Below, in pieces: positions 1,873-59,608 of a DNA stretch of 64,000 bases. The notes under the pieces were generated by a model. The model made no database searches and was not told the origin of the DNA. It saw only the letters and a list, made by a program, of their open reading frames with translations. Position numbers and translations under genes: made by a program. This DNA is from a virus. The DNA is taken from IMG/VR virus record IMGVR_UViG_3300025881_000010, positions 1 to 64,000 of that record; one strand, given 5' to 3'. Within the stretch, counting starts at the first letter, position 1, and every line of letters begins with the position of its first letter.

Positions 1873-2164
1873 TATAAGAGATCTATTCTTTCTAACTAAT
1901 GACGAGCAACCAGAACTGGAGATGCCGAATATGTTTCAATGTTGGAACATATTCAAGCATCATCCAAATTTGTCATTTACCACAATCAGAGATTTCAACA
2001 CGTATAAATATTGTGCTGTACTTAGTTCCTGTTATGATGGAATAGATAGACAAACTTTGTTCAGTTTTTCAAATTTCTCATTTGATACTGAACAACAAGC
2101 TGGAGAAGCTATGAAATCCGTAGTCTCCGAGATCAAAAGAAAGATAACCATCGAATGTAATTAG
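1859..2164 (+). CDS. hypothetical protein
   Basis: ORF overlapping the exonuclease stop. Confidence 0.55.
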   Translation: MERANIRDLFFLTNDEQPELEMPNMFQCWNIFKHHPNLSFTTIRDFNTYKYCAVLSSCYDGIDRQTLFSFSNFSFDTEQQAGEAMKSVVSEIKRKITIECN

Positions 2165-2167
2165 ATT

Positions 2168-2347
2168 ATGAAAAAATGTAATGCTTGTGAATTATATCCA
2201 GCAATAAAAGGAAAAAATAAATGTAAAAGTTGCATAGGAATAATTAATCATATTAAAGAACAGAATTTAAAACAAAATTTCACTGAATGTTCTAAGTGTG
2301 AAACACTATTTCCAAAAGGAACTGAATGTCCAGTATGTAGATTTTAA
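2168..2347 (+). CDS. 59-aa double zinc-ribbon microprotein (not in ORF track)
   Basis: MKKCNAC...CKSC...CSKC...CPVCRF*: four CxxC pairs; fills the intergenic gap. Confidence 0.7.
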   Translation: MKKCNACELYPAIKGKNKCKSCIGIINHIKEQNLKQNFTECSKCETLFPKGTECPVCRF

Positions 2348-2368
2348 TTAACCCCTTAAAACAAATTC

Positions 2369-3466: not shown

Positions 3467-3469
3467 CAT

Positions 3470-15600: not shown

Positions 15601-18600
15601 CGGCAATAGATCCATTTACAATTTCATCAGCAAAGAATAAAAATTCACTTTTGAATTCAGGATTTTTTATAGATAATATTGGAGAAGAATTAGCTTTCAT
15701 TCTTTTTAAGATTCCTTTTCCAGTTACACCAGGAAGGAATACATCAGCCACATTAAGACCATGAACAATATTGTTCATCACGTATTCACCAACCATCTTT
15801 TTACCTTCTTTATTCAGAATGTAATTTCCATTTCCTTTATCCCGGATATAAGGTTTTAATGATTTTACATTAGACAACTCATTCAAGTTATCTTCTATAA
15901 ATTTCACTTCATTTTGCATTGCTTCAATAATACTTTTCTTGAAAGCTGCCTTATTATTTGTAACGCTATTATCAGGAAACATAGCACTGGCAAGATTGAA
16001 AGCATTGTTCAATATTTTACCATCAGTTTGCCAATGTCCATTTTCGTCAAATACTTGATCGTATTTAATACGGTTCATGTTCATAAAGAACTTTCTAGGT
16101 GAATCTGAAAATGTTCCCATATTACCTAAGTATTGACGTAATCTTTTACCGTTATCTCCAGTTGAAGTATTTAAAAAAGTAAGTAGATCTTCAACACCTT
16201 GTTCTAAAGCTGTACTGTTTTTAAATAAACTACTTTTCTTATTGTCGATATCTTCAAGTCCATGATATTGACTTATTTGAGGTATCTGGCCATTTTGGAA
16301 GTTGTTGTAAATGTTTACAAGGAACTCATTATTATGATAAGCTTTATTATCTCTGTTTTCGAAAATAGAATCTTTGAATTCTTTATTGAAAGCAGCTTCA
16401 GATACACGAGAACCTTTTTTGTCTTTCAACAAAAATGTTCTCATTTTTTTAATATCATTCTTATCTATTTGAGGAAATTGTTCTTGAAGTGTAGTTTCTG
16501 AAGGAACTCTTTTAATTCCATTAGGATCTACAGCTTTATAGATTTTACTCAATGAAGCTTCTCCCATAGCTGTAGTAGATTTTCTCTTTTTGAATTTACT
16601 ACCGGTATGAGAATACCTATCCATGAATTGATCTAATGTAGGTTTACCAGCTCCATCTTGTCCATGAAGATATTCAACCATATTATCAATCTCATTTGTC
16701 ATGTGATTGTTAGCAATTCTGGATTGCTCCATATTACCTTCAGCATTTAATACTGAACTATATTCAGTGTACTTGCGATTGGTATTTTGTAAAGCTTCAA
16801 CTAGATTACGGAAACCATAAACATATAAACTCTCTTTATTGTAAGTTCCATTTTCAAATCTGTTGTACACATAATCTCTTTTTAGATATCCGGAAACTAA
16901 AGTTTCAATTGGGATATTAAGACCATCATAAGTAATATAACCACTCTTCCAAAATCTAGCTTCATTAAAACTACCATCAGTTAGATTATTGATCACATTG
17001 AAATAATCACTTTCAGTTTCTACACCTTTTTGAATGTTTAAAACTGATTGCCTGAAATTGGCCCATTGCTCTGTTTTACCATCAAGTTTTTCACGAAGAT
17101 TGGCAATAACATTGTTGGTGATGTTCTTTTCTCTAATAGATAAAGAATCATGCATCTCATGTATGATTTCTCCATCTGAACCTTTCTTGATTACATTTCG
17201 AATACCATTAACGTGCTTCGCATTTGAAAACACGAAGTACATACCATTAAGCAATTGTAGCTTATCATCTTTTTTAGTTTTATCTAAAAAGTCATTAAAG
17301 TCTATCATTTCTTTAATAGCGGAGTTTTCAACTTGATAAATGAAATCTACTGCAGATTTGGATTCTTTAGCAAGATTGTACATTTCAGATTCAAATAGAT
17401 GTCTTTCAAATAAAGGCTCTTCATTAAGATCTACATCTCTTCTTGATACATTGTCTTTAAGGAATTTTCTACGAATAGATTTATTGTAGATAATACCAAA
17501 CCTCTTAATGATTTTTGAAGCACCTTTAGCTTGTTGCTTGAATTCTTTAGCAGAAAATGGATTTCCAGTTTCTTCTAATTCATCTTCATATTCATCCATG
17601 TAATCTTGGTCAAACTTTTCTTCCCAAAGTTTGTCAGGATCTTTCTTGATTGTCTTAGACATTCTTTGACGAATATCATCAAGCTTAGCAGCACGTTGAG
17701 TTTTAATCTTTCCAACTCTGGCATCCATTCCGATACCATCCATTTTTATACCTTCAGTAACAGCCTTAAAAGTATCAAGTATGAAATTCTTAGGATTTCC
17801 TTTAGGAACATTAGTTTGATCATCAGCTAATTTTCTAATCATTTGCTGAACACCATTTTCACCATCTTCAATTACTTCTCCCTTACGTCTAAGCATGCCC
17901 CAAAACTTCTTAACTTCTTTTTGGCGCTTCGCTTCTTTTTGGCTGAAAATTTTATCGAAATTATCAGCTAAAGGATTTTGCAATGCTCTGGTGAACATTT
18001 CTTCTAATAAGTAATGTTGTTCATTTAATGGAACTGTAGAAATACCATCATCTTCTAAACTAAGATATTTAGCAAGTTCACTTTCTAAATCTTCATCTTT
18101 AACTCCATCAGATTTGAACATCTCAAAGAATTGACCTTTAGTATATCTTTCGTTTCCTAATTGATATAAAGTCAAATCATCATACTTACTTCTTATCTCA
18201 CGAACAAGTTCTTTATTGGCTAATGCCATTTTTAATATTTCTTGAGTTTCTGGAGCATCTTTAGCTAACTTGTAATAGATGTGTGAAAGCTCATGCATAA
18301 AAACCCAATCTTGTTCCCAGGCTTTTTCATCAATGAACATTGTAGCCGCAAGTGAATGACCTACACCTACAGAACCGATAGCTTCATACATGTTTTTCAC
18401 AATAATTACTTGTGCCGGATCTTTTAGATTCTCAGGAAACATTCTTTTTAATTGGTGATTTACCAATACCATTTTATCTAAGTTGGAAGGACCCATCTCA
18501 TTATACATGGTAGAACTATTCAAGTAATTGTCTAGTTCATTTTGAGAAATGTTAGTTTGAGTGCTAATTCTACTACGAGATAATTTACTTAGAAACTTCA

Positions 18601-21598
18601 TTTTCTTAATGAAGCTTCTATAGTTTTTAGCGAAAATTGTACTTGTTTGATCTCGGGCATCCATTCCAAGATTCTCTTCTGAACCTTTAGTTTTATTACG
18701 ATCAATCTTCCAAGCAGATTTTGCATTATCAGCTTTATTACGAGCATCCATTCCTAAAGAAGATGCTTTTTTATACTTCTTAGTTTTGCGAGATTTTATG
18801 AATTCTTTTTCATCATCTGAAACATCTTCATCATCAATATCGTCTGAAGTATCATCATCCTGATTATCTATACTATCATCCGGATTATCGGGATTGTTGT
18901 CTGGATTTTCGGGATTATCAGGATCTATATTATCATCAGTATTAATAGGATTTACTTTATCAATACCAAGCATTTTATTGACGATAGCATTTTTAACAGC
19001 ATCTCTATTTTTAACTCTGATATCTTCTTGACGATTGGTAAGCTCTCCATTATTCATGATAGCTTCAGCAATACCATTTAAAGTTTCAGGACTTACTTCT
19101 CCAGTCTCTTCAAATTGCTTGAAATCTTCATCTGATACTGTTTCATTTTCATCTGTAACAACAGCTTCCTCAGCCATCTGTTCAGCTTCAGCTTCCGCAG
19201 CTTGTTGAGCTTCTTTAGATTTCTTACCTGTTACATTATCAACTTGATCACTTTGAAATTTCTTTTTAGCAACTTTTAGTTCTTCATCAAACCTAGCATT
19301 GATTTCTTTGATATCGGTTTCATCTTCGACACCTTCAAGTTCTGCAGCACGTTGTTCTTCAATACCGGCTTTCGCTTTTTTGAATTCATCATAACCTTTA
19401 GTAGCGTTGTCAATTTTTTCTTCAGCATTCTTCATGAAAGGACTGGTAATATTTTTCAGCCATTTATTGAAGTTAGATCCTGCAGATTTGATTTCTGGCA
19501 ATACACTACTTTTCTCTCCAGCTTTTGTAAAAGCTTTAAAGTCTTTACGAGATAAACCAGTAACAACTATTTCATTCCCAAATTGATCATATTCTACTTC
19601 TACATCAATTGGGTTTGCACGTTTACCTAAAATAAGATTACGTTGATTCTGCATTGCTTCTTGTTGCATTTGACCTAAACCAAAAGCACGTTTTTTGAAC
19701 AAGTCTTTTTCTTGTTGAATCTTCTTTAGAATTTCATTTTGTTCTGATTTGATTTTAGCAGCTTCTTCTCTGGAAACTTTTCCTTCCGGACGAAGACTGT
19801 CAATCATCATATTTAATTTCTCAATACGCTTATTTGCTTGTACCTGATAAGTTTCAATTTGAGATTGAGCATATCCTTCTTCAGCTTTGTTTTGTAACAA
19901 AGCTTGAAGTCCTTTGACATTTAGAAGTTTTCCTTCTTGTTTAACCTTGTCAAATTCTTCATACATCTGATCAAAACGTTTCTTTTCTTCTTCATTGATA
20001 TTTTCGTTTTCTATCAATTTATTCATGAAGTTGTTGTAAACATCTTTTCCTGTTTTTTCATCAATAACAAGATCAGCTATTTGCTTACGAACATGCATTT
20101 CTTGAAATGTAAGTTCTTTTTCAGTTCCTTGCTTTTTAGTTATTTCTTCAAAATTTTTGATTCTATTATGAAGCTTATGAGATTCATCAGCTTTCTTATC
20201 TATAAGATCTCCAATATTAAATACAGAACCACCAAGCGCACCCATAGCTGCAGAAAGAACTATAGTACCTCTGTTTTCTTTAGACTTATAGAATTCCCAA
20301 AAACCTCCCGGATTAAATAGCTTATCATCTCCCTCACCTGTAACCTCAGCAATAGCTTTCTTTTTAGACCATTCTTCAAATGATTCTTGGAAAGTTTCTT
20401 CCAATCCTTCAAATCCAGCTTTACCCGCAACCTTAGCAATACCTTTGATAATAGGAGCAACATCATAACTAAACATTTTAGCAATAGTAGCACTAGAACC
20501 ATTTTTAGCCATATTCATGCCCTTAGTGATAGGGTTAAGTCCTTTAAGTGCTTTCCATCCACCACCGAAAGTAAGTCCAAAAGAAGCCATATCTACAGCC
20601 ATCCAAGCTGCATTGTTTCTAATAGTAGAAGCAGCCATTTGTGAAAGATCATCTTCATTGAAGATTAAATTTCCTTGAGCATCTTTTAAGTCTTTATTAG
20701 AGTTTACAACCTCAGCAGCATTTAATACTCCAGATAAAATGTTACCTGTAAAACCACCACCAATTGCTTCTACTCCCATTCCAGCAGCTTTAGTCAATCC
20801 TTGATCAGAAACAAGCTTACCAATAATACCTTGTCCACTACCAAAAACTTCTTTACCTAAAGCATTTCTTGTAGCATTTTTAGCTACTGTTTTTGCCACT
20901 CCCTCAGCACCTTCTTGAAGACCTTTTTCAACAATACCTTTAGCGATACCACTAGCTGTTCTTTTAGCTAAAGCACCACCACCTTTTGATAAGAATATAA
21001 ATTCTGCAAGTTGAGGTATCATTTCTGCAGCATGAATACTCCAAAATTTAGGATCCATCATAGAACCAAATGTCAAATTCTCAGACATTAGTTCTTCTGG
21101 AATATATGCTTTGTATTTAGATTCTATTTCGGCACCAGTTTCTTGAAGATATCTTGAAAATGGATTTCCTGTAGCAATACTTTGTCCAGGAACAATTGCG
21201 GAAGCAACTTGGATTAAATCTCCAGTTCCTTTTACAATATGTTTACCAACACCTCTGGCTATACTTTTTGCTGATTCTTCCCAAAAATCACGCATGGTAA
21301 ATTCAGCAGACCAAGCATTATTTCCTTTTTCAAGCTCTCCAGTACTTGCTACAGAAACACCACCTAATTGCTCTGAAGCAACTTTAGTATTTCTATTGAC
21401 TTCATTTTCTTGGGGAGTTCCTAAGTCGTCAGGCATTGGCATAGCTTGACCAGCTTGTTGTTGTCCTTGATTTCTATATCTAGGATCTAAATACCTTTCA
21501 TCCGTTCTTTCTTCAGCTAACGACGGGTTTTCGGGGGGAGCTTGCGAACTGGCTTTTTGGGTTTGAGCCTTATTCACAATGTCTAAAAAATCAGGCAT
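9689..21598 (-). CDS. virion-packaged two-barrel RNA polymerase polyprotein with zincin protease domain (crAss-like vRNAP)
   Basis: 3969 aa; SRVP..G and catalytic GSDNDGD (14204-14218); HELSH zincin motif (18281-18295); Gly/Ala hydrophobic N-terminal region; last gene after the ejection genes, as in crAss-like phages. Confidence 0.85.
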   Translation of the reverse strand: MPDFLDIVNKAQTQKASSQAPPENPSLAEERTDERYLDPRYRNQGQQQAGQAMPMPDDLGTPQENEVNRNTKVASEQLGGVSVASTGELEKGNNAWSAEFTMRDFWEESAKSIARGVGKHIVKGTGDLIQVASAIVPGQSIATGNPFSRYLQETGAEIESKYKAYIPEELMSENLTFGSMMDPKFWSIHAAEMIPQLAEFIFLSKGGGALAKRTASGIAKGIVEKGLQEGAEGVAKTVAKNATRNALGKEVFGSGQGIIGKLVSDQGLTKAAGMGVEAIGGGFTGNILSGVLNAAEVVNSNKDLKDAQGNLIFNEDDLSQMAASTIRNNAAWMAVDMASFGLTFGGGWKALKGLNPITKGMNMAKNGSSATIAKMFSYDVAPIIKGIAKVAGKAGFEGLEETFQESFEEWSKKKAIAEVTGEGDDKLFNPGGFWEFYKSKENRGTIVLSAAMGALGGSVFNIGDLIDKKADESHKLHNRIKNFEEITKKQGTEKELTFQEMHVRKQIADLVIDEKTGKDVYNNFMNKLIENENINEEEKKRFDQMYEEFDKVKQEGKLLNVKGLQALLQNKAEEGYAQSQIETYQVQANKRIEKLNMMIDSLRPEGKVSREEAAKIKSEQNEILKKIQQEKDLFKKRAFGLGQMQQEAMQNQRNLILGKRANPIDVEVEYDQFGNEIVVTGLSRKDFKAFTKAGEKSSVLPEIKSAGSNFNKWLKNITSPFMKNAEEKIDNATKGYDEFKKAKAGIEEQRAAELEGVEDETDIKEINARFDEELKVAKKKFQSDQVDNVTGKKSKEAQQAAEAEAEQMAEEAVVTDENETVSDEDFKQFEETGEVSPETLNGIAEAIMNNGELTNRQEDIRVKNRDAVKNAIVNKMLGIDKVNPINTDDNIDPDNPENPDNNPDNPDDSIDNQDDDTSDDIDDEDVSDDEKEFIKSRKTKKYKKASSLGMDARNKADNAKSAWKIDRNKTKGSEENLGMDARDQTSTIFAKNYRSFIKKMKFLSKLSRSRISTQTNISQNELDNYLNSSTMYNEMGPSNLDKMVLVNHQLKRMFPENLKDPAQVIIVKNMYEAIGSVGVGHSLAATMFIDEKAWEQDWVFMHELSHIYYKLAKDAPETQEILKMALANKELVREIRSKYDDLTLYQLGNERYTKGQFFEMFKSDGVKDEDLESELAKYLSLEDDGISTVPLNEQHYLLEEMFTRALQNPLADNFDKIFSQKEAKRQKEVKKFWGMLRRKGEVIEDGENGVQQMIRKLADDQTNVPKGNPKNFILDTFKAVTEGIKMDGIGMDARVGKIKTQRAAKLDDIRQRMSKTIKKDPDKLWEEKFDQDYMDEYEDELEETGNPFSAKEFKQQAKGASKIIKRFGIIYNKSIRRKFLKDNVSRRDVDLNEEPLFERHLFESEMYNLAKESKSAVDFIYQVENSAIKEMIDFNDFLDKTKKDDKLQLLNGMYFVFSNAKHVNGIRNVIKKGSDGEIIHEMHDSLSIREKNITNNVIANLREKLDGKTEQWANFRQSVLNIQKGVETESDYFNVINNLTDGSFNEARFWKSGYITYDGLNIPIETLVSGYLKRDYVYNRFENGTYNKESLYVYGFRNLVEALQNTNRKYTEYSSVLNAEGNMEQSRIANNHMTNEIDNMVEYLHGQDGAGKPTLDQFMDRYSHTGSKFKKRKSTTAMGEASLSKIYKAVDPNGIKRVPSETTLQEQFPQIDKNDIKKMRTFLLKDKKGSRVSEAAFNKEFKDSIFENRDNKAYHNNEFLVNIYNNFQNGQIPQISQYHGLEDIDNKKSSLFKNSTALEQGVEDLLTFLNTSTGDNGKRLRQYLGNMGTFSDSPRKFFMNMNRIKYDQVFDENGHWQTDGKILNNAFNLASAMFPDNSVTNNKAAFKKSIIEAMQNEVKFIEDNLNELSNVKSLKPYIRDKGNGNYILNKEGKKMVGEYVMNNIVHGLNVADVFLPGVTGKGILKRMKANSSPILSIKNPEFKSEFLFFADEIVNGSIAGSDSGMYILKEQAEKLQKVGQGVFDMNNGFKLLNSHIEKNNPNFEGKLGYLKGYTTIVDENHWAYPMMKARMDKYNQWHEKQYGQLPSDNYNDGTPNHLIIAMPQSSDKSNFAKQKFYNDDTMEYTEEGQRMAPSSLKQDWSHVDKMQDDLYYDDKGNFVGLETYNFGPQQVMDKITKSSNTPVQMVNSIMVNAALNGEMDLAIEIQQHLSDQKMKALDVISKDLASGQIDKYKEIIDRELNKEDMDQAQRHILEDKLGSVAHPYVNEIAVNQLAKMILRAGNKLKTPGTNAHQKPDTGYNLNATVSSVPTLLGYEKNIDGSLSPAHMILPKHMAQEAEAREDVTRYTHKSELDRIRKSYKNDFTKEQELDALKSLTVRKAKRRAFQETGNQDNYEKFMGAVNNKSGVPIGFYVKGETVMASRVPGHGPSSTGVFEVIGFDESSDGNQVMVPGEFNEIIGSDNDGDSLFIQKRGDKKEYADWNKAFDKLTQYWLSPKMAEQIQTKMDIKKVAQPALEKVQSVFSQSAKDKAPFSPEQRRQDYSNTMVSKRNIGKIFNLHKIANLLAAYETPLKKGFVIGNNKYNTFRDTVSGDLSRNQQSAVLANIILDNAKHGYADAFGFDEHNMAQATLLINLGVSLEDTALILNSDAAKAWSEANRNNSSLFHSSKKTSALINDVYQKLGFKKRPKNVDLKINIENIKDKSQQPAILETLINLSQVNGDLQKISAIMSGHNKIHVNPFVLNQQIQDFSKTLKESEHLTFNSEFGKNPDIQQYLRTAEEALKHSEKLNPVYRPATKKVLEALTRKLGGELSTMEIENISKDLLKFNTSRLIGLNNISKAYVQDLLNEKSETSIFKKMTEFVNDLKMAQEENVDDPSKTVSRFHNSVLFRKALNMNLSGDNQYISASSSMVDESFTAEERTRIQEEFEELPTSLQDDLILYDMVQHGWKDKRSMAPFFGRETSDWISYASNEDAVNKNVAKVPKEITDKLETIIALKQSMSKNNSFPKVYLKSQTDFRATNDVIRQIIQNKAIQKAITENWQPMYINVRQQGKTALYELPQFDAREIMQLQAINDSGRRNVEVLKMAAEKIRHIPNTLSYNENTRNGKKSRIYNPEIDIAMIEDIANTYSPYKTTPDYSKKKNVEGLVEANLSYQDRANRLKDKMTKSSVVSGMDAREDFDIPLFRKEQALTQQEYERSMEFNSLVPNSTRTGMYEQYLKSKKEANRIAQELVPNIPNLSEEDLMELYQDHGNKDVYAYSIVITPIVQELASRLAISQSELWKDGTEGKGYDGKDVNRLQAYMMTGSTIPSNHPSAQAMARILEKEYKTFIGEKRKYMTEINKATDALYKDRLGYGTNRSLKNVIFRLKDFFGIGAQNVYDKLYGNLVVRQRVEDKKGNITYDFKLKSKEDIAAAFARGEISKAENDFYNVFKKTTSELMPAKVIEKRKEDYIPHTSMTRLEKFSARGLLGLMANSRSENEALSDVKMNFKDEYGEEKLMSFRQIEDSFKRYSGQDKYKNDIGKIVEYRNLKKKALKLLKEGKNEDGTPIKYDRVGIETALGFGAINRFTNNRSVTAEELPSMDLNKALSDYVHATLFVNGNSKFKGMEKLQSYIDGVLAFNRDNNFQYMNEHVQTVWKDYFTRGKRQTSLLGEKTDKVIRTLTNLNLFYALGYQANKNTGGLYVLGNIAVGKYHNIKDVGGKTWINGELKYWGLDKGFEGGIEGVLNRHKRMSRIMKNLNFMDINVYDEVNIEKQNGLDKVFSELALMPMTKSEEWIQRVHMIGLLNEDILNKFDDEGNYKKGESEVDNELLVQLEDKVKQSHGRGYQPTDQRAVQMYSWGNMMMQFSKFIPTMIQDRFAKKDVNIYGQETIGSLRAVGNMVREVVNDPSGFVEYRNKLSKEERAKLDSGLRGMAMSTVIGFAGAALSSNLATNLFGDANYYINHPKLSNKMIPPAIQSTNNFISELF

Positions 21599-45343: not shown

Positions 45344-46186
45344 TTATTTTCTTAGTTCAGTGTATAATTCTTCAACTAATTGCTGATAGAAATCAGGATT
45401 CTTTTCAAAGTAGTCAACTACTCTTTCTTTAGAAATACCAATGTTTCTACCTCTATACTTGAATACAGCTCCATCAATATCTATGATGTTGATACGTACC
45501 ATTTCTGTAATTTCGAAATTGTACTGAGCTTCTTTCATGTTGTCAAGAATTCTATTCACGTTTTCAGCATTCTTATAAGAACTACGTACATACTTCTTCA
45601 GAATACTTTTAAGTTTTAATAATTCTTTCCCAGGATCATTCATCAACTTCTCTTCACGATATTGCAATCCAAGAGCATTTAAAATGTATCTGGTTCTATC
45701 TAATCCTAAAGTTTTACCTTTTTCAGAAGAGATGTAACCTACAAGTTGATCAATATAATTTTCTTGTTCGATATCTTCAACATCTTGATGGTCAAGATTT
45801 TTTAGCGTATAAAGCGGATTGCTTCTTTTCTTGCTATATCTTTTGTCGTCCAAGTGGACTTGCTCATTGTTGATACCTATTTCCGGATGCTTGATTAAGT
45901 GATCAAGGTCCAATAGATCTTGTCTATTTTCTGAAGGCTTGTAATTCTTAATTACTTTGTCAATCCAAACACCGTGTTTATGTCCACCTTGAGCATTCTC
46001 AGGATAAACATCTTTACCGGAAGTTGGATCCTTATAGCTACCGATCATACGGCCACTAAATCCTTCAATTCCTAACTTGTTAGTTAGCTTAACTCTTAAT
46101 TGCCAAGTACCTCGCATAATTCCTTCGCGAAGCATCTGGTCTCTTTTCTTCAATTTTTCAATTTTGTCTTCGTGTAATGTTTCCAT
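45344..46186 (-). CDS. conserved crAss-like structural-module protein downstream of MCP
   Basis: Synteny; FKY..IG..VV.YF..NP C-terminus. Confidence 0.6.
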   Translation of the reverse strand: METLHEDKIEKLKKRDQMLREGIMRGTWQLRVKLTNKLGIEGFSGRMIGSYKDPTSGKDVYPENAQGGHKHGVWIDKVIKNYKPSENRQDLLDLDHLIKHPEIGINNEQVHLDDKRYSKKRSNPLYTLKNLDHQDVEDIEQENYIDQLVGYISSEKGKTLGLDRTRYILNALGLQYREEKLMNDPGKELLKLKSILKKYVRSSYKNAENVNRILDNMKEAQYNFEITEMVRINIIDIDGAVFKYRGRNIGISKERVVDYFEKNPDFYQQLVEELYTELRK

Positions 46187-46196
46187 GGTTATAATA

Positions 46197-46228
46197 ATAA
46201 AAAGCTACCTCCAGTGCGGAGGTAGCTT
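46197..46228 (-). terminator. terminator after MCP
   Basis: AAGCTACCTCC-AGTGC-GGAGGTAGCTT preceded by an A-run. Confidence 0.8.
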
Positions 46229-46244
46229 GATTAATAAAAACTAT

Positions 46245-47912
46245 CTAAAAAATGAAATCAGTAGCTTTTTGTCCAGCGATAGTAGTACCGTTAAGATCTC
46301 CACCATCCCAAACTGCTGAAGCTTTTAAGATACCACAAGAACGAGTATCATAAAGAACAGCCATTTGCTCAGAAAGCATATGCACAGCGCATCCATCAAA
46401 ACCACTTGCCGCATGGCTAGAGTTTTTGCTAGAAGGATCGAAAGATGTCATACCATCTACAAACTTACGTTTGTGCTCTCTTTCTTGACGAGATATGATC
46501 TCGAAGTTACCAACTCCATCTACAGAAGTCGTGTTGATTATGTAGATGTTACCAGTACCCACAAGTCCACCGTTTGTAGGAAATAAACCTGGGTGGTTGA
46601 AGATTTCATCTTCGATGATAGTAATCTTGTTGTTCAAGTACTCATAAGTAGTAACATTGAATCCAAGAGTAACATCTTGTCCAGTTGTGATGTTGTAAAC
46701 AATATTGTTTCCACCACCATTTCCTGAATCAAATTGAAGAAGTTTCTTCATACCTCTATCAAAAGCTGTTCTACCAATACGGTCAGTTACAGCTAAGAAC
46801 TCATTGTTATCAGTTCCCGCAGGGGAACGAGTAGCAAGTACGTTCAATAACGCTTCGATAAGTGTATGAACTAATCCGTTGTTAGGATTATAATCGAATG
46901 TTGCGTTGTCTTGAATTTGAGGGATCCAACCTTCTCCGATTATCGGAGCTGTCATACCTGACTCAGCACGGAAACCAGAAAGCGAAAGCTTATTGGTACC
47001 GTAGTTTTCATACCAAGAATGAGTTTCAGGGTTCATGGTAGTTCTAGAGAAACGTAAAGAAAGTTCGTTGAACATTCTGAACATTTCATCAGCCTTCATA
47101 ACCTCAGCAAATTCCCAAGAACTTTCGTTTTGGTTTTTACCGTTCCAGATCTTAGCTACTTTTTGACTTGCAGCTGAACCAGTCATAGTTAATGTGTAAC
47201 GAGAGATAACTGAATAGTTAATTCTCCATTTGTTACGAGAAGTTCTTTGGCTACCTTTCATAGACCCTTCACCAAATGCAGAACCACCTTCACCAAGAAC
47301 GTTTCCGTCAGCTAAGTGTGCTTCGTCAAAAAGTGGAGCTTCACCAATAAACTTACCATCGTAAACAACGTTGGTTTTATCTGCAGATGCTCTACCAGGT
47401 TTCTGAATTAAGAATTGAAGACCAAGACCATTGTCTAAGTTCATTCTATCGTTAGGGTTGAATTTGTCTCCAAAAACACCATTATCAGGATCATGAGCAA
47501 TAGCAATAGAACCTGGAACATCAGTTTCTACTTTAGTTGCATCAATACCTCCTGTGTATGCTACTGCGCCAGCTTGTCCAGAAATATCCGGACTTGGATT
47601 GGCAGCATCAAAATATCCTCCGATATAAGCTTTCCCAAAAGAGTAAGCTGGAAGAATATTCATTCCTTCATAAGAAATACGGTAAGCATTATCATTAATG
47701 CTTTTATCTCTTTTCATTTTACCAGACTGAACCCCTTGGTTCACTCGGCCAGTATTATAAATCCATGACTGGAATTTATTGTACTTTTTAAATAAGTCGA
47801 AAGTCTTTCTTTCAACTGCGAAGTCTTTTGCCATCAAAGTAGTCAGCGAGTTGTCTTCGGTGTGGATTTGGGGATTGAACCTTTCTACAGGTCCACGCAT
47901 AAGTAATGCCAT
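46245..47912 (-). CDS. major capsid protein (HK97-fold, crAss-like)
   Basis: 555 aa after portal and scaffold; GEGS.KG, IGEGWIPQI, FDG..VHML motifs; own terminator. Confidence 0.85.
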   Translation of the reverse strand: MALLMRGPVERFNPQIHTEDNSLTTLMAKDFAVERKTFDLFKKYNKFQSWIYNTGRVNQGVQSGKMKRDKSINDNAYRISYEGMNILPAYSFGKAYIGGYFDAANPSPDISGQAGAVAYTGGIDATKVETDVPGSIAIAHDPDNGVFGDKFNPNDRMNLDNGLGLQFLIQKPGRASADKTNVVYDGKFIGEAPLFDEAHLADGNVLGEGGSAFGEGSMKGSQRTSRNKWRINYSVISRYTLTMTGSAASQKVAKIWNGKNQNESSWEFAEVMKADEMFRMFNELSLRFSRTTMNPETHSWYENYGTNKLSLSGFRAESGMTAPIIGEGWIPQIQDNATFDYNPNNGLVHTLIEALLNVLATRSPAGTDNNEFLAVTDRIGRTAFDRGMKKLLQFDSGNGGGNNIVYNITTGQDVTLGFNVTTYEYLNNKITIIEDEIFNHPGLFPTNGGLVGTGNIYIINTTSVDGVGNFEIISRQEREHKRKFVDGMTSFDPSSKNSSHAASGFDGCAVHMLSEQMAVLYDTRSCGILKASAVWDGGDLNGTTIAGQKATDFIF

Positions 47913-49146: not shown

Positions 49147-51384
49147 TTAAGCTTTTTGAGGTGTCTTTTTTGTATCACTTCGATCTTTTTGTTCTAATTC
49201 AGCAGCTTTTACTCTTTCGGTTGTAGTAGCTTTCATACCTTCTGTGATAGCTTTATTGTTAGCATATGTATCAGCAATTCTTTCTTGAGAAGCATTTCTA
49301 TCATCAGCAATTTGTTTTGTCTGTTCTAGTTTAGCTTGTTCGGTTTGAGCTTCTAATTTAGCTTGTTCCTCAGCAGCTTTTCTATTTGCTTCTTGCAATT
49401 CCATATAAGATTTCATGGTTCTTTTGAAAACCGCTTTTTTCTCTGAAGCTGTTTCAGCTTCGAGAACATCAATTAAACCTTCCATCATTTCAATAGCATT
49501 TGAAGATGATAAAGCTTGTTCTGCAGCGGCATCAATTCTTTGAGCTTTTTCTTTATCCTTACGGCTATCAGATAAATAAATACCTAAATCAGATTCAAAA
49601 AACTCTTTGTAAATCTTAATGAATTTAGCTTCTAAATCTCCAAAAGCCATTTGTAATACTTCTCCTTCAGAATAATCATGTTTAGATTTCATGATCACTC
49701 GCTCAATAAGCGTTTGCACAAATTCATCAAAAGGAGTGAATACAACTTCTGTACGTGCAGCTGAACCCGCGATTGCGGCATTAGTTCCTCCGGCAGTTTG
49801 GTATTGTCCAACTTGACCTTCACGCTCTGGAGATATCCCTACAAACTTACTAGCCATATCTTCAATCATTGCCAAAGCAGTAAACATATCTTGCATAGTT
49901 CCTTTTGCAGATAAGTCAAGTGAATTGAATTGATTGAAAGTATTTTTTTGTTGAGCTCTATCTTTAGAGTTTATGAACATGATCTTATCTTTCTTGATGT
50001 GGTGCATTACTCTATCAAGTGCAGAATCATATCCTTTTTTAGAAACATCTTTAGGAGTTTGAGCAACATCATATATTAAAATACGACTATCTCCCATGTG
50101 CTTTACAGCAAGTCTAATTTCGAAAAGAATTTCAGAAGCTAATTGTTGTAGTTGATACAATTTAGCAGCTGGTGATTTTATTTGAGAACTTCCAGTAGCA
50201 ATATCTCTAACTAAAGAAACTACCGGTAATTTACAAATATATGGATTGTCAATAGAAGAGAAACGTTGTTTCATAATTCCAAAATCCAAGCATATTTCAG
50301 GACCTAACATTTGAACAAATCTTGGCACTTCACCATAGATTTCTTTTATGTTATCGTTCTCTCTGGCTTTTTCATCTATACCTAGTTTCTTATAAAAAAC
50401 TTTTTGAGTTTTTTTGCTTTCAGAAACTTTGATAGAAACTTTTTTCTGAGATTTCCACATACCGCTAACCACTCTCATACGTGTAGTTTTGTTATCGGTA
50501 TTTACCCAGCCATCATACTTCTTAGCGTTTTTTAAAGGCTCACTATTATTGGTATTATCTCCAGTAGTAAAAGCACTAAAGATAGCATTTACAGCATCTT
50601 TCTTTTTCTTATCTAATTTGAAAATATTGAAAATCTCATTTTTCGTCAACCAATAGTTTTCGAAAAAATATTCATGATCATCTTGAATAGCTTGATAAGG
50701 ATCTGTATCATGGTCAGCATCTAAAGGATGCACTTTTCTTGCAATAGTATGGCCTTTCATTTTATCAACTATTGCATGGCATTGATCAGCAATACAAAAG
50801 TCAGTGAACATTTCCGGTATTCTATTTTTACCTTTATTCACTTCAAGCCAAAGCTGTGCTAAATTATCAGCTACATCTTCAGCAATCATTTTGAACTTCT
50901 TAGTCATGAACTCTTCTACATCTGGAGGAAGCTCAACATCTTTGTGTTGAGTTTCAATCTCAAATCCAAGTTCTTCTTTAGTTTCTTGCGATACCCCACG
51001 CATTACTTCTTCAGTAAGAAGATCTAATTTTTTATCTAACTTTTTTGAAATTGATTTTTTATCTATAACGTAAGCTTTTTTCCTAAGTGGTCGGCTCATG
51101 TATTCCCCAACAATTTGCTCGATCTTAGTTTGAATCAAAGGATAAACAATAAATTGAACTCCCAAATTAACTCCATTAGGACAAGTGATGGATTTTACAA
51201 GTCCTTCTTGTTCTGGAGATAGTTCAGCAAAGTAAGCTCGATAAAGCTTTTCAATTTCTTTTTTTCTATCATCTGCAGTTCCAGGATTAGAAAATCTAGC
51301 ATACTCTATAGCATGCTTAATGTGAAATTCCTCGTTCTTCTGATTTTCAGGAATTGTTTGGTCGGGGAGTGCAAAGTAACTCAT
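49147..51384 (-). CDS. portal protein
   Basis: YPLIQTKIEQIVGE..RP, GISPEREGQ, C-terminal coiled-coil barrel; follows TerL. Confidence 0.9.
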   Translation of the reverse strand: MSYFALPDQTIPENQKNEEFHIKHAIEYARFSNPGTADDRKKEIEKLYRAYFAELSPEQEGLVKSITCPNGVNLGVQFIVYPLIQTKIEQIVGEYMSRPLRKKAYVIDKKSISKKLDKKLDLLTEEVMRGVSQETKEELGFEIETQHKDVELPPDVEEFMTKKFKMIAEDVADNLAQLWLEVNKGKNRIPEMFTDFCIADQCHAIVDKMKGHTIARKVHPLDADHDTDPYQAIQDDHEYFFENYWLTKNEIFNIFKLDKKKKDAVNAIFSAFTTGDNTNNSEPLKNAKKYDGWVNTDNKTTRMRVVSGMWKSQKKVSIKVSESKKTQKVFYKKLGIDEKARENDNIKEIYGEVPRFVQMLGPEICLDFGIMKQRFSSIDNPYICKLPVVSLVRDIATGSSQIKSPAAKLYQLQQLASEILFEIRLAVKHMGDSRILIYDVAQTPKDVSKKGYDSALDRVMHHIKKDKIMFINSKDRAQQKNTFNQFNSLDLSAKGTMQDMFTALAMIEDMASKFVGISPEREGQVGQYQTAGGTNAAIAGSAARTEVVFTPFDEFVQTLIERVIMKSKHDYSEGEVLQMAFGDLEAKFIKIYKEFFESDLGIYLSDSRKDKEKAQRIDAAAEQALSSSNAIEMMEGLIDVLEAETASEKKAVFKRTMKSYMELQEANRKAAEEQAKLEAQTEQAKLEQTKQIADDRNASQERIADTYANNKAITEGMKATTTERVKAAELEQKDRSDTKKTPQKA

Positions 51385-51408: not shown

Positions 51409-53616
51409 TTAATTATTATTTATTTTCTTATGATGTTCGTTCAAAATGAATGACATAGGATCATGACCGTATTTGTCAAGTATATCTTGTCGCTCTTTCT
51501 CAATGTATCTTTGATTCTCTACAATAGTACTTTCATACTTTTCTTTTTCATATCCTTCAAGATCATATTCTGGTTTGAATTGAATTAAATCTTCATCGTA
51601 AGAATAAGGATCTTTCTTGTTTGTTAATTGTCCAAAGGTTTGATATTCGTATTGTCCGTTTTCATTTACAACCCAAGTTCCTGCACCATCTAATTCAGAA
51701 ACATCATTATGGTCTTCTTCTATACCATCGGTAAGATCTCCGAAAATACTCATTTTATAAATCATTGCCATTGCAAAAGCAGAACCTAAATCTGAGTTTT
51801 CTTCTCCGAAGTCAATAAGATGCAACAATATTTCTTCAAACCAGATATTATTCCAGAAATTATTAACCTCAGCTTTTAAAAGCTTCGCAGATAATTTCCA
51901 TGAATGCTGATTGGACATTTTAAATCCATATGTATTCGCAGCATTAGAACTATAACCATCTATATCAGGTCTTCCGGCAAGATGCTTAGTACCACCACAA
52001 TCAATGAAATGTTGCTTGATAGCAATCTTAGTATATTCCAGTAGCATTTCTGAACCATAATATACCGTTAGTCTGAATGTTTGAGAATAGAAGACATCAT
52101 CTTCATCTGAAGTTCCACGATCTAGTATATACGCGATAGGGAGATTGCAAACTTTATTTATACTGTAGAAACAGCGATACACAATCGTTGCACCTTCAGA
52201 ACCAGTACCTTCTTTTACTTCATCATCATAACTATCACAAGCAACTAAGTCAGGACAGTAAGGAAGATTTTTGGAATCAATAGGATCCATAATCTTCTTA
52301 ACAGTACCAAATTCTTTATCATCTACAAAAACAGCTTTAGAACCTCTAGTGAAATGTATCTTGTCATATTCTTTCAAGTTTTTGGCTCTGGCCGCAAGCT
52401 TTTCAGTTATAGGATCATTAGTCTTCCACTCAATTCTACCTGTCTTAATTTCGTAAGGGCAGTTATCAAGATTTGCTAATTGAGCATTAAGTTTTTGGCG
52501 ATTTAAATAACCACCTGAATTCTTAATGAAAATATCAGCTTCTTTAAGTGGGTATGATTGAATATGTTTTACATAACCTTCAGAACCTTCTTTTTCTAAA
52601 CGCTCTTTAATGATGTGCTCATGAGCAGCTTTAGAATTTGTTCTACCTGTACGGAAATCAAAGAATGATATTTTTTCTCCTGTTTCTTCATCAGGAATTC
52701 CATCTCCAGGATAGTAATCAGTAGCAGAAACAAAAACTTTTTTAAGGTTGTAAGTTTCTTTACGGCTATGCCACATGCTCTTATATCCTTTAGAACCTTT
52801 ATCAATTTCTCCACCGGTACCATATACAAGTGGTGTTCCAAATTGAATAGATCCTTCTTTGAAACATGGTTCGGTAGATTTGTATGCAGCAATTAAATCT
52901 TCGAAAAGTCCAGCTTCTTCAAAGATTACCATAGAAAGCGATTTACCCTCAAAACCTGTTGGTTTTGCGTACATCGTTTTCATGTACATACTGGATTTTA
53001 AACCACCTTCTTTTTTCTGTTTGTTCTCTGTGTATTGGTAAGATAATCTGATTTCATCAGCATTACGAACACTGATACTGGACCTGTATTCAGGTCTAAT
53101 ATTGTCAAGTAGATATTGCACTTTCTCATAGAAATCTTGTGCTTTATCATCTTGTCCGGCAGCTACTCCAATTTTGTTTCCTTTGTAGAATAATAATTCA
53201 TAAGCTGAAGAAGTAGAACCTACCCACGATAAACCTACTCGACGTGGTTTACCAATAACAAGTCCATAATGACCTCTTTTAGCTTGATGTATTTCATCGA
53301 ATAATCTCCTATCTAATTCTCTGTAGAATGGAGAACCCATGCTTTTTCTTGTTGCTCCTGGTTCCAGAAGCTCAATGTTACACATGTTTAGGTAAAAGTA
53401 ATGTTCACCTGTGATTGAAGGCATGTAAGCTCTAGGCTTATAACCATTGATACAACGGTTATCTTGTTCATCCCAAAAATCATCATATGCGATAGTTCCC
53501 GGATTATAGTCAGGAATTTCTTCCTCTATAAGCGGACGATAGTATGTACTATCAAAACGATCCCAATTGATATTTACTTCCATAAGTAGGTTATTAAAAA
53601 AGGCACCGGTATTCAT
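51409..53616 (-). CDS. terL: terminase large subunit
   Basis: GKPRRVGLSW (Walker A-like), FEEAG (Walker B), YGTGG, nuclease CDSYD. Confidence 0.92.
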   Translation of the reverse strand: MNTGAFFNNLLMEVNINWDRFDSTYYRPLIEEEIPDYNPGTIAYDDFWDEQDNRCINGYKPRAYMPSITGEHYFYLNMCNIELLEPGATRKSMGSPFYRELDRRLFDEIHQAKRGHYGLVIGKPRRVGLSWVGSTSSAYELLFYKGNKIGVAAGQDDKAQDFYEKVQYLLDNIRPEYRSSISVRNADEIRLSYQYTENKQKKEGGLKSSMYMKTMYAKPTGFEGKSLSMVIFEEAGLFEDLIAAYKSTEPCFKEGSIQFGTPLVYGTGGEIDKGSKGYKSMWHSRKETYNLKKVFVSATDYYPGDGIPDEETGEKISFFDFRTGRTNSKAAHEHIIKERLEKEGSEGYVKHIQSYPLKEADIFIKNSGGYLNRQKLNAQLANLDNCPYEIKTGRIEWKTNDPITEKLAARAKNLKEYDKIHFTRGSKAVFVDDKEFGTVKKIMDPIDSKNLPYCPDLVACDSYDDEVKEGTGSEGATIVYRCFYSINKVCNLPIAYILDRGTSDEDDVFYSQTFRLTVYYGSEMLLEYTKIAIKQHFIDCGGTKHLAGRPDIDGYSSNAANTYGFKMSNQHSWKLSAKLLKAEVNNFWNNIWFEEILLHLIDFGEENSDLGSAFAMAMIYKMSIFGDLTDGIEEDHNDVSELDGAGTWVVNENGQYEYQTFGQLTNKKDPYSYDEDLIQFKPEYDLEGYEKEKYESTIVENQRYIEKERQDILDKYGHDPMSFILNEHHKKINNN

Positions 53617-55024: not shown

Positions 55025-55276
55025 TTATACTTTGTTACATTTTAGGTTTTTTTTATTCTTTATGTGATTACTAAAATAACCACCTACACTCGGAGAGTCC
55101 GCTAACTTGTCGTAATCTTTTCGCTCTAATGGAGCATAAGCATAGACAGTATCATTCGTTTTGAAATGAACGTAAAGTGTTTTCTTTTCAGGATAATAAG
55201 CGATCTCTTGAATAAGACCGCTATTTTTCACTTTAGTTCTAGGCCATGATGGATTAATTGGTAATATGTGATCCAT
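55025..55276 (-). CDS. KTSC domain protein
   Basis: S..I..IAY...LYVHF...YAY...SPSVGGYF...IK. Confidence 0.9.
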   Translation of the reverse strand: MDHILPINPSWPRTKVKNSGLIQEIAYYPEKKTLYVHFKTNDTVYAYAPLERKDYDKLADSPSVGGYFSNHIKNKKNLKCNKV

Positions 55277-55599
55277 TATGATTCTATTTTAAATTCTTCC
55301 CAGTCTTCAGCCATGATATCAGTTTGACTTGCTAACCATCCGTTTACGATAGTATCATCAGCTGCTTTCATACAGATGTATGAAGTTACTTTTACAAATT
55401 CAAAAACTTCTTTACGCCCAAGATGTTTTCTATCATAATATCTTTTCACTTCATCAGGAATTGATACTGCATTAAAAAATACATGTGCTGGAAGTTTATC
55501 TTCAGGACGTGAAAAAAGAAACATATCTTTTCCGTTCCAACCTTTACGAGTTACGAGCTTTCCTTCTTTAAGTAGCTCTATTGCTTGTCCAAAATTCAT
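55276..55599 (-). CDS. DUF2829 / Tad2-family protein (putative immune-signal sponge)
   Basis: MNFGQAIELLKEG..V.RKGWNGK.MF ... GWLASQTDIMAEDW. Confidence 0.85.
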   Translation of the reverse strand: MNFGQAIELLKEGKLVTRKGWNGKDMFLFSRPEDKLPAHVFFNAVSIPDEVKRYYDRKHLGRKEVFEFVKVTSYICMKAADDTIVNGWLASQTDIMAEDWEEFKIES

Positions 55600-55600
55600 A

Positions 55601-57253
55601 TTAATATTGTTGAGGTTTGTAGATATCTGGATCTACGATTACTGATTCCGTTGTTAATATCATTCCCATAATTGAGACAGCGCTTTCTAAAGCTACACGA
55701 GTAACTTTCTTTGGGTCCATAATTCCAGCTTTGATCATATCATCTACATACTTGATCTCACGAGCATCAAATCCCATATTGAAATTCGATTCCATTTCCT
55801 GAATTCTTTCAATAGGAATATTATATCCTACATTTTCTACAATTTGTTCAAATGGTTTTCTTATTGCTTTAAGTAATACCTCAGCGCCTTTCTTACGATC
55901 TTCGTTATTACTAATGCTTCCAATATTCATTTGACTTAAACTAAGAAGTGCAGTACCACCACCCGGGATAACACCTTCTTCGTATGCCGCTTTAATTGCA
56001 TAAAGCGCATCCGTTACACGAGCTTGCTTCTCTAATAATTCTGTATCACTAAGACCTCCAATATGAATAAATGATAAACCTTCAGTCAATCTAGAAATTC
56101 TAGAATTGATTATTGATTTTTGATATCCATCAAGATTTTTAGTTTTCAATTTATCGCGAAGTTCTGAAGCTCTCTTTTCAGTATGAGCATCAATTTTTTC
56201 ATACTCTTCATCTTTAAGACCAATCGGCCCTTTAAGAGAACTTGTATGTTGACCGATAGTGATCTCTTCAGATTGTGGTAAATAATCTAAAATGTTTTCA
56301 TTGTCCAAAGAATAGAAATCTAATCCTTCATCAGTGAAAATTTCTTTTCCCATTACAATTGAAAGATCATTAAGAATATCAATCTTATCATTTCCGAAAC
56401 CAGGAACACGACAAACACAAATTTTGAAATTCTTTTTGACTTTATTCTCAGCCATAATATTCAAAACAAATTCGTCGATATCTTCACAAATGATCAATAA
56501 CGATTTATCACCTTCATGAATCTGAGTAAGCAAGATATCTAAATTGTCATAAGGCTCAATGTTCGTAATCTTTTTATCTGTAATGTAGATATACGGATTT
56601 TCAAGAACACAAACTTCTTCTTCTTTTCTGTTCATGAATACTCTGGACTTATAACCCATAGGTAAAGTCAATCCATCTACAGTACTTAAAAAAGTTTTCT
56701 CAGTATGAGATCTTTTGATATTTACAATTCCCTGTTTTCCGGAAGTCTTGAAAGCATCAAAAACTACATTTGCAATTTCTTCATCATTGTTAGAAGATAT
56801 CAAGGCAACTTGTTTTAGAATTTTATTATTCTCTTTGTTGTCCTCGGTAACATCTTTAGATAATTTTGCCAATTGATCAACAATCAATCTTGCCATATCA
56901 TCCATTCCTCTTTTCATTTCTAAGAGGTTTGTATCTGGAGCTTGCTTTAATCCTTCAATAAGAATAGCTTCTCCAATAACCGTAGCGGTAGTGGTACCAT
57001 CTCCAGCTTTACTATCAGAACTATTTGCAATATCCTGGATTGATTCAATAGCAATCATTTCAAAAGGATCTTCAGAAGCCATGTGTCCAGCAACGGTAAC
57101 ACCATCTTTTGTTGAGAATGGTCTTTCATCCTTATTTCTAATTAGCACATTTCGTCCACTTGGACCTAATGTCGCTTTAACTGCTTTCGCAATTGAAGAA
57201 ACCCCGGAAGCTAATTTCTTCCGGGCATCTTCACCATATAGTACTTTATTCAT
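55601..57253 (-). CDS. groEL: GroEL-like chaperonin
   Basis: TLGPSGRNV, TKDGVTVA, GDGTTTAT, GVIPGGG, GIMDP.KV. Confidence 0.96.
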   Translation of the reverse strand: MNKVLYGEDARKKLASGVSSIAKAVKATLGPSGRNVLIRNKDERPFSTKDGVTVAGHMASEDPFEMIAIESIQDIANSSDSKAGDGTTTATVIGEAILIEGLKQAPDTNLLEMKRGMDDMARLIVDQLAKLSKDVTEDNKENNKILKQVALISSNNDEEIANVVFDAFKTSGKQGIVNIKRSHTEKTFLSTVDGLTLPMGYKSRVFMNRKEEEVCVLENPYIYITDKKITNIEPYDNLDILLTQIHEGDKSLLIICEDIDEFVLNIMAENKVKKNFKICVCRVPGFGNDKIDILNDLSIVMGKEIFTDEGLDFYSLDNENILDYLPQSEEITIGQHTSSLKGPIGLKDEEYEKIDAHTEKRASELRDKLKTKNLDGYQKSIINSRISRLTEGLSFIHIGGLSDTELLEKQARVTDALYAIKAAYEEGVIPGGGTALLSLSQMNIGSISNNEDRKKGAEVLLKAIRKPFEQIVENVGYNIPIERIQEMESNFNMGFDAREIKYVDDMIKAGIMDPKKVTRVALESAVSIMGMILTTESVIVDPDIYKPQQY

Positions 57254-58244: not shown

Positions 58245-58511
58245 TTATTGTTTCGGTTCAATCGTCAACCAACCACCATCCGGTAACAACTTCAGGTTTT
58301 CAGTTTTTTTAATAATAATATCATCTGCAAGAACCTCATTGTAGATAATAATTTTTCCTACAAATTTTGGATCAAGATCCTTCCCAACTTTTAAAATTTC
58401 TGCAGCAGTTAATAAAACTCGATTAGATGCAAAATTGCTTTTAAAATAATCTGAAATAGGTTTGATCAAAAATTTTTTGGAAGGAATTTCAATGTCATTG
58501 TAGTCTTTCAT
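58245..58511 (-). CDS. divergent GroES-like co-chaperonin
   Basis: KFLIKP..AEILKVG..VG..IIY pattern, 88 aa, near groEL. Confidence 0.6.
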   Translation of the reverse strand: MKDYNDIEIPSKKFLIKPISDYFKSNFASNRVLLTAAEILKVGKDLDPKFVGKIIIYNEVLADDIIIKKTENLKLLPDGGWLTIEPKQ

Positions 58512-58526
58512 GTATATATAAATAAC

Positions 58527-58553
58527 GTAAACCCGCTGATAGTGCGGGTTTAC
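58527..58553. terminator. GC-rich hairpin / possible terminator
   Basis: GTAAACCCGC-TGATAGT-GCGGGTTTAC. Confidence 0.55.
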
Positions 58554-58672
58554 AGGTGATTAATAAAATAAGTTAATAAATAATTATGTGGGGGGTAGCA
58601 TGTAGTCATAGATTATTATCGCTTTATGGGATTGCTAATCTAGTCAAAACGTCAAAATGGCGCAAGTATTAT

Positions 58673-58912
58673 TTAAGAAAATTTCGGCATTAAAGTCAAA
58701 GCATGTTGTTTTGCCATTTCCAAAGACTCTCTCATTCTTTTTTGAAAATTTAATTTTCTTTGTTCTATCATTTCTTCAGTAGCATATATTGGTTGTGGAT
58801 CTATAACAAATATTCCATATCCATGCAACGATGCTATTGTATGAATAAAACCCCAATCATATCCTTTATCTAAAAGAATTTCATAAAATCTTTGATCTTG
58901 CCATTGTGCCAT
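58673..58912 (-). CDS. hypothetical protein
   Basis: ATG 58912 follows the upstream stop. Confidence 0.6.
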   Translation of the reverse strand: MAQWQDQRFYEILLDKGYDWGFIHTIASLHGYGIFVIDPQPIYATEEMIEQRKLNFQKRMRESLEMAKQHALTLMPKFS

Positions 58913-58914
58913 AT

Positions 58915-59235
58915 CTAAAAGTTTGAGAATATAAATCCACAATCATTTGGATTGCGTTCTTTGCTATTAATAAACATAATTTTGTCTCGCTTTATATGAT
59001 GCATCAATCTATCCAGATCTTCTTTACTTACGCTAGGCAAAAAGTCTATATCGTAAACTAAAACTCTTGGCGGTTCTACAAAATACTGTAATCCCAATAT
59101 AGGATCATAGTTGAATACCATCGTTGTCTGAATTGAATTTTTTAATTCTTCTGGATAAGGATTTACAGAAATCTTCTTATGAGTAATAGGAATTAAACCA
59201 GTCTCAATAGCCATCCTTCTTAATTCTTCGATCAT
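58915..59235 (-). CDS. small protein containing a portal-like segment
   Basis: DRLMHHIKRDKIMFINSKER versus portal DRVMHHIKKDKIMFINSKDR; ATG 59235. Confidence 0.75.
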   Translation of the reverse strand: MIEELRRMAIETGLIPITHKKISVNPYPEELKNSIQTTMVFNYDPILGLQYFVEPPRVLVYDIDFLPSVSKEDLDRLMHHIKRDKIMFINSKERNPNDCGFIFSNF

Positions 59236-59236
59236 A

Positions 59237-59422
59237 TCAATTTTGAATTTCTTTTTTAATAAATCTTTTTTGAAATTCTTGATTTTCCATAGCAAATAAA
59301 TAATCAAATACTTTTCGCTTATAAACTACAATTGTTATTCCTAATAATTTTTCACCCATTCCTGCAGTCATAGAATCAATTACTTCTATTTCTTCTTTAT
59401 TTTTTTTATCAGTATATATCAT
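59237..59422 (-). CDS. small SH3-like phage protein (VVY..F..E..EF..RF, DUF1653-like)
   Basis: Motif pattern. Confidence 0.5.
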   Translation of the reverse strand: MIYTDKKNKEEIEVIDSMTAGMGEKLLGITIVVYKRKVFDYLFAMENQEFQKRFIKKEIQN

Positions 59423-59608
59423 ATCATTTGAAAGTTATATAAAAAAAAAGCCGGCAATATTTCTATCACCGGCGCCCCCAATACCGAGAATAGTCCTACA
59501 CTACTCTCTGCACTATTTCAATCTCTTTCAAATGCCTTTCTCAAGGTGGACATCAGTAAGTGTCTCATCATTACCATATCTGAAATAATACTTCTACAAA
59601 TATATACT

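Follow-up and report, generated by a model that had tools for sequence, protein, structure and literature searches.

A putative portal-clip mimic encoded by a small accessory gene of a marine crAss-like phage

A marine crAss-like phage encodes a small protein of 106 amino acids, here called P0003, part of which closely reproduces the clip domain of the phage's own portal protein. Its gene (58915-59235 on the minus strand, including the TAG stop at 58915-58917) was found in the window, that is, the whole stretch of 64,000 nucleotides that was analysed (positions 1 to 64,000 of IMG/VR record IMGVR_UViG_3300025881_000010), which belongs to an uncultured viral record of 82.5 kb, classified as complete by CheckV. 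Judged by its reading frame, its relatives and its pattern of substitutions, P0003 is a real gene, accessory in character and subject to purifying selection. Its product probably stands in for the tip of the portal clip towards some partner that binds clips, and the reading placed first, as a possible rather than a probable one, is that of a soluble clip mimic acting as a putative decoy for an immune sensor or another host factor.

P0003 is the middle gene of a compact cassette. Its ATG at 59235 lies 1 nt past the TGA of the upstream gene (TGAtATG), which encodes 61 amino acids (59237-59422, minus strand), and 2 nt separate its own TAG from the ATG of the downstream gene, which from that codon encodes 79 amino acids (58673-58912, minus strand). 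Neither neighbour has a homologue in related phages, and Pfam gave no match for P0003 nor for its two partners. The downstream protein is not clip-like, as judged by BLASTP against the portal (E 3.5) and by hhalign against the family described below (Prob 0.2). On the same strand, terminator-like hairpins called by a consensus scan alone are located just upstream of the cassette (59450-59473, T-run included) and just downstream of it (58526-58554). The start of P0003 at 59235 was favoured over an internal ATG at 59121 on the basis of weak N-terminal similarity to the homologues P0004 and P0005, and the protein is on record in three contigs.

The portal-clip-like segment of P0003 covers R57-R94 (58954-59067, minus strand) and would be made up of a strand (RVLVYD), a helix (SKEDLDRLMHHIKRDK) and a second strand (IMFIN). 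When compared by BLASTP with the portal of the same phage in a single comparison, 26/44 positions are identical and 33/44 positive (E 1e-12), and a six-frame search of the whole 82.5-kb genome returned only the portal site (E 1.3e-10) and P0003 itself. Even allowing for an all-against-all reading of the window, this match is far beyond chance. P0003 aligns to the portal over residues 57-94 only, with no wing, stem or crown, and is therefore not itself a portal, a protein of this type having some 700-850 amino acids. In the core of the alignment, D75-R94 of P0003 (58954-59013) and D457-R476 of the portal (49957-50016), both encoded on the minus strand, share 17 of their 20 residues, and the stretch upstream of it, RVLVYD..P..VSK in P0003 and RILIYD..P.DVSK in the portal, falls inside the same BLASTP alignment.

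The two copies are written in different codons. Among the 15 identical residues of the core other than Met, 11 use different codons and 4 the same one, and for serine the change is between AGC and TCT. Calculated by the Nei-Gojobori method, synonymous differences between P0003 and the portal are saturated (pS of at least 1), against a dN of 0.14 for the core and of 0.30 when 38 codons are compared. Given that silent sites are saturated and dN is low, the copies have been separate for long enough that silent sites became randomised with the protein kept, and synonymous saturation rules out a recent DNA duplication or gene conversion between them. The preliminary description of this DNA, which had reported the similarity together with its recoding and had argued that it was maintained at the protein level and not newly duplicated, was thus confirmed on both points.

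As a side observation, the 4 codons shared in the core pair compare with 7.75 expected from independent draws on the phage's own codon usage, a post hoc comparison in which P(<=4) is about 0.04; this deficit could be due to chance, or to the avoidance of nucleotide identity between direct repeats.

The six clip residues that are invariant in the clade (portal Y438, D439, P444, H462, D466 and N472) are all present in P0003, and on helix 456-467 the eight residues that face the solvent (D, R, H, H, K, R/K, D, K) are all identical or conservatively replaced, the exposed side of this helix being assigned by helical periodicity and not from coordinates. The same exposed positions vary in family members from other phage lineages.

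The portal gene encodes 745 amino acids (49147-51384, minus strand) and was assigned by its match to the portal family phrog_6547 (E 3e-39). A profile built from this portal and its relatives matches the portal of crAss001, gp20 (7qog_A, E 1e-16), which is also the top Foldseek match (E 7e-27) of its AF2 model (pLDDT 71.5). In this model, a stem helix (405-430) is followed by a strand (434-439), a helix (452-465), two further strands (468-471 and 488-490) and a second stem helix (494-515). The portal of T4, gp20, has the order stem-clip-stem, with a clip made of three strands and one helix (PMC4493910). Taking into account that residues 433-476 (49957-50088, minus strand) lie between two long stem helices in this canonical order, the segment copied in P0003 is the clip domain, which agrees with the guess made in the preliminary description. 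The same sequence of strand, helix and strand between stem helices is found in the clips of crAss001 gp20 (PDB 7QOG/7QOI) and T4 gp20 (residues 279-358, PMC4493910), to which P0003 adds an N-terminal Y.YDPILGLQY motif and a C-terminal I.SNF tail. The clip segment is highly conserved among 49-65 portals of the clade. An origin in the opposite direction, with the portal segment derived from the small gene, was ruled out by the conservation of this segment in all 65+ clade portals.

The portal gene and that of the crAss-type large terminase, TerL (51409-53616, minus strand; phrog_6681), belong to a long leftward gene string. Elsewhere in the window, a single ORF of 3969 amino acids (9689-21598, minus strand) likely encodes the giant virion-associated protein typical of crAss-like phages.

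P0003 had been regarded as an orphan in the preliminary description; instead, it belongs to a family of at least 12 small proteins distributed over several phage lineages, including uncultured phages with crAss-type portals. A word-based homologue search with P0003 returned the protein itself only, and an exhaustive phmmer search retrieved P0004-P0006 (E 9e-10 to 4e-5). P0003 also matches phrog_35052 (E 4.2e-8, over residues 63-113 of the 130-amino-acid frame) and a local HMM of the family (E 1e-32). Homologues of 69 amino acids were detected by tblastn in the Cellulophaga phages phi17:2 (gp083) and phi4:1, amid helicase and RecA genes, and a pattern scan of IMG/VR and JGI metagenomes added those of G002, L022, L024-L026, L030 and L033. 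The phrog_35052 proteins of phi17:2 and phi4:1, which are recorded as hypothetical proteins, have the same N-terminal motif, LP..SKEDL and the ISNF C-terminus (HMM E 4e-8, tblastn E 1e-4); in contrast to P0003, they lack an N-terminal extension and are encoded among replication genes.

Members of the family are built from an N-terminal Y.YDPILGLQY motif, a putative strand-helix-strand part and an I.SNF tail. In P0003 the defining motif, MVFNYDPILGLQY, occupies residues 39-51 (59083-59121, minus strand) and is predicted to form a beta-hairpin (E41-44/E49-52 in an AF2 model, with low confidence); no second copy of it was found within the window. Seven residues (Y43, P45, I46, G48, L49, Y51 and P67) are invariant in the 12-member alignment and S91 is nearly so, and the conserved marks of the family are a Pro that follows the first strand, a Ser that follows the second and, usually, the I.SNF end. 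The C-terminal sequence is IFSNF in P0003, P0005 and phi17:2 gp083, and LP.VSKEDL is common to P0003 and the phi17:2 homologue. Because P0003 has the N-terminal motif and the tail of the family, together with the LP.VSKEDL of phi17:2, it is considered, on these sequence features, a member of the family by descent and no portal fragment.

The fold of the small protein would be that of a clip-like strand-helix-strand domain preceded by a hairpin, which its AF2 model, a poor one based on the 12-sequence alignment (pLDDT 59), reproduces in part: helix 71-83 and the N-terminal hairpin are predicted and the clip strands are not. In the ESM Atlas no usable feature match was obtained for P0003, its model being poor and its structure matches being unrelated folds with TM < 0.5. 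The family profile, run against PDB sequences, retrieved no portal and only a chance-level match to the BRD4 ET domain (E 0.4). One metagenomic member, P0006 (129 amino acids), has a C-terminal extension with four Cys in zinc-ribbon-like spacing, and in its clip-like part the signature NKVM...INSKQ, that of one subclade of portals, can be recognised.

The likeness to portal clips extends beyond P0003. With P0003 left out, P0004-P0006 still matched the clips of portals of the clade (E 8e-8, 6.4k sequences searched), and the copies of G002 and L022 align to the clips of their own portals at E 0.002 and 0.004, respectively. A profile of eight members that excluded the window's subgroup matched the clip of the L116 type, which belongs to a more distant portal clade, both in hmmsearch (E 1.2e-4) and in hhalign (E 1.5e-4, Prob 52%). 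The similarity of the small proteins of phi4:1, G006 and G008 to their own portals is not significant, the portals of G006 and G008 falling in the same PHROG as that of the window; the phi17:2 homologue likewise shows no significant similarity to its own portal, and the members from outside the crAss clade, searched alone, gave nothing significant against portal clips. On these profile comparisons, the strand-helix-strand core of the family appears to be descended from, or remodelled on, a crAss-type portal clip, and family-wide descent from a clip is likely, though short of proven. A pairwise alignment of the small gene of L024 (10001-10225) with the L116 portal (1245-3509; E 7.5e-6) runs the N-terminal motif into the end of the stem helix (MLYNITMYHIEL..), and the whole small protein may, according to this alignment, come from one contiguous piece of stem end plus clip.

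It had also been asked whether homologues track the portal of the phage that carries them. Ranked by Smith-Waterman score, P0003 places its own portal first among 70 clade portals (score 120, with the next at 111 and a median of 99) and also above some 70 further IMG/VR portals (best 103), which makes it first of about 140. For the L022 copy, its own portal ranks 1-2 of 70. However, the G002 copy ranks its own portal 46 of 70, and the copies of G002 and L024 are closer to the L116-type clip than to that of their own portals. Tracking of the cognate portal is therefore, by these scores, real in the phage of the window and no rule of the family.

Besides the window, only G002 and L022 have the full-length gene among relatives with enough upstream flank. 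G001, L009 and about a dozen further relatives with at least 8 kb of upstream flank lack it, and it is shortened to 20-38 amino acids in L004, L006, L008 and L071. This is the distribution of an accessory gene in a variable slot and not that of a core assembly factor. The remnants take different forms. In L004 (294-386), L006 (1892-1984) and L008 (429-521), all on the plus strand and from one related lineage, a 20-amino-acid ORF, MNFHYDLILSYSPEITSNAFF, has the N-terminal motif followed at once by the C-terminal tail, the clip-like middle being deleted in frame. The syntenic 38-amino-acid ORF of L071 (2414-2590, plus strand) lacks the N-terminal motif, retains no more than the clip-like strand and a portion of the helix, and matches the clip of its own portal at E 4e-4; it is located directly upstream of a 266-amino-acid gene whose N-terminus is like that of the 266-amino-acid gene near the G002 copy. 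In G009, at about 46.9 kb of its record, a 32-amino-acid ORF with only Y.YHPILGLQY (L027:9989-10105) lies immediately downstream of GroEL (45426-46901).

The cassette of P0003 is a variable small-gene slot upstream of a phage GroEL gene (55601-57253, minus strand; PF00118 E 1e-48, phrog_5725 E 7e-123) and of a Tad2-like, anti-Thoeris gene that directly follows it (55276-55599, minus strand; PF11195 E 7e-24). The Tad2-like gene is thus about 3.3 kb downstream of P0003 in the same leftward string, with GroEL between them. Downstream of the cassette, an 88-amino-acid gene (58245-58511, minus strand), a 323-amino-acid gene and GroEL are syntenic in relatives, as an o88/o323/GroEL module in which the 88-amino-acid gene is conserved upstream of the other two. 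A GroES-like identity for the 88-amino-acid protein was considered and not supported, as neither Pfam nor a profile search of PDB sequences gave a Cpn10 match. GroEL is present in all the clade members tested, including those in which the small gene is absent or shortened, and family members also occur in the GroEL-less phages phi4:1, G006 and G008. The occurrence of GroEL without the gene, and of the gene without GroEL, rules out a strict linkage of the two.

What is known about clips in other phages provides the frame in which a function can be proposed. Terminase docks on the clip, and so does the neck or tail (PMC4493910); in crAss001 it is in contact with the tail barrel (PMC10172136). 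In the assembled SPbeta portal, it is the clip helix on which the TIR sensor SpbK docks, and this docking activates the sensor (PMC12847820). A 24-residue peptide of the T4 gp20 clip (288-311) binds gp17 and inhibits DNA packaging (cited in PMC4493910). This peptide resembles P0003 in being a free piece of clip that competes for a clip-binding partner, and by this analogy it is the only experimental precedent found for the action of such a molecule; however, it is a laboratory reagent derived from an unrelated portal family, whereas P0003 is a natural, selected gene encoding a putative binder. A second likeness is with Nip of phi3T, a counter-defence to the portal sensor SpbK, and with anti-defence decoys and sponges, which are also small accessory phage proteins, patchily distributed and encoded in variable regions, and for which, as for P0003, neutralisation of the sensing of a conserved virion protein is proposed. 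Nip, however, binds the NADase SpbK itself, while in the case of P0003 the proposal is mimicry of the trigger. In a literature search, no natural free-standing portal clip protein was found described, and neither was a natural mimic of a portal or of any other structural-protein trigger.

Since all the clade-invariant and solvent-facing clip residues are kept, P0003 is read as a stand-in for the docking surface, and a function as decoy or as competitor, putative in both cases, is plausible by analogy and fits both the patchy accessory distribution and the published biology of clips. Thus, P0003 would be a soluble, probably monovalent copy of the docking surface of the portal, able to tie up a partner that binds clips. 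The favoured partner would be a factor of the host that recognises portal clips or docks on them, namely an SpbK- or Avs4-like immune sensor. Bait in monomeric form would fill such a sensor without offering the 12-fold platform on which it has to cluster in order to fire.

It is because the gene is dispensable, often lost, part of a variable cassette and, in this phage, matched to the phage's own portal that the decoy has been placed first, an immune decoy being slightly favoured over a competitor for terminase or tail docking. This reading is consistent with the patchy occurrence of the gene between terminator-like hairpins, with the Tad2-like anti-Thoeris gene in the same leftward string, with the retention of the match to the own-portal clip after silent saturation (6/6 invariant residues, own portal ranked first), and with the published case of SpbK, whose docking point on the SPbeta portal is the clip helix (PMC12847820). 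It is weakened by the failure of cognate tracking in G002 and L024 and by the members of phi4:1, G006 and G008, which have no significant similarity to their own portals. The proximity of Tad2, about 3.3 kb away and beyond GroEL, is weak evidence for an anti-defence island, and a free copy of the clip could equally bind the phage's own terminase. Extended to the free-standing clip proteins of phages with crAss-type portals as a whole, these would be monovalent baits for sensors that dock on assembled clips, the copy in the window being kept matched by selection; this wider proposal is regarded as doubtful.

The partner could also be a protein of the phage itself. P0003 would then bind TerL, or the first tail ring or adaptor protein, at the site that grips the clip, and so time or limit packaging and tail attachment, or disturb the packaging motor of a co-infecting relative. 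The T4 peptide and the role of the clip as docking site of terminase and neck (PMC4493910) speak in its favour, as do the contact of the crAss001 clip with the tail barrel (PMC10172136), the position of P0003 about 5 kb upstream of TerL and portal on the same strand, and the conservation of the exposed helix residues; the resemblance of the G002 and L024 copies to the clip of another portal clade would fit interference with other phages. Nevertheless, an inhibitor of the phage's own essential motor needs tight control, and none is evident; the phi17:2 homologue lies among replication genes; and, of the close relatives with the same TerL and portal, most have lost the gene or have it shortened, which places it outside the core packaging process. 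Such a role is unlikely, although it is the first alternative to be considered after the decoy.

Placed next, and also judged unlikely, is shared ancestry without shared function. According to this explanation, the small protein derives from a clip, by descent or by a one-time transfer of a patch, its present role is unrelated to the partners of the portal, and its conserved residues reflect the fold constraints of a small strand-helix-strand domain. Most members of the family are indeed weakly or not at all similar to their own portals, and what is invariant in the family is its N-terminal motif rather than the clip-like segment. However, the window's subgroup has kept the charged, solvent-facing residues of the helix no less than the hydrophobic ones although synonymous sites are saturated, the own portal of P0003 ranks first of about 140, and fold constraints alone rarely keep an identity of 17/20.

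A role in portal assembly seems improbable. It would consist of a clip-like cap that pairs with edge strands left exposed on unassembled portal subunits until the dodecamer forms, possibly together with the phage chaperonin. Clip strands of different subunits do join in a three-stranded sheet (PMC4493910), the gene is located upstream of the conserved o88/o323/GroEL module, and in G009 the motif-only ORF comes right after GroEL; but GroEL is kept where the small gene is missing or shortened, family members are found in the GroEL-less phages phi4:1, G006 and G008, and the distribution is patchy.

Finally, a decaying fragment of a portal gene or a chance ORF, the former being the case that the preliminary description had set against its own proposal provided that no conserved homologues existed, is highly improbable, for although shortened remnants exist in relatives, the 106-codon frame is intact and tightly coupled by stop and start codons on both sides, the N-terminal half does not come from the portal and is conserved throughout the family, dN falls far short of dS, and full-length homologues are present in several lineages.

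The portal clip is a hub for terminase, for the tail and for at least one characterised immune sensor, SpbK, and a natural, selected and soluble copy of it would be a ready-made probe for clip binders in crAss-like phages. The packaging and host interactions of these phages are almost unstudied. If P0003 acts as a decoy, it would represent a new principle of counter-defence, the mimicry of a structural-protein trigger by copying the sensed epitope itself, and the Bacteroidota hosts would be predicted to carry defences that sense clips. If, on the other hand, it binds terminase, it would be a natural regulator of packaging or a weapon between phages. In either case, the family, with its at least 12 members, constitutes a defined set of genes in which these possibilities can be tested.
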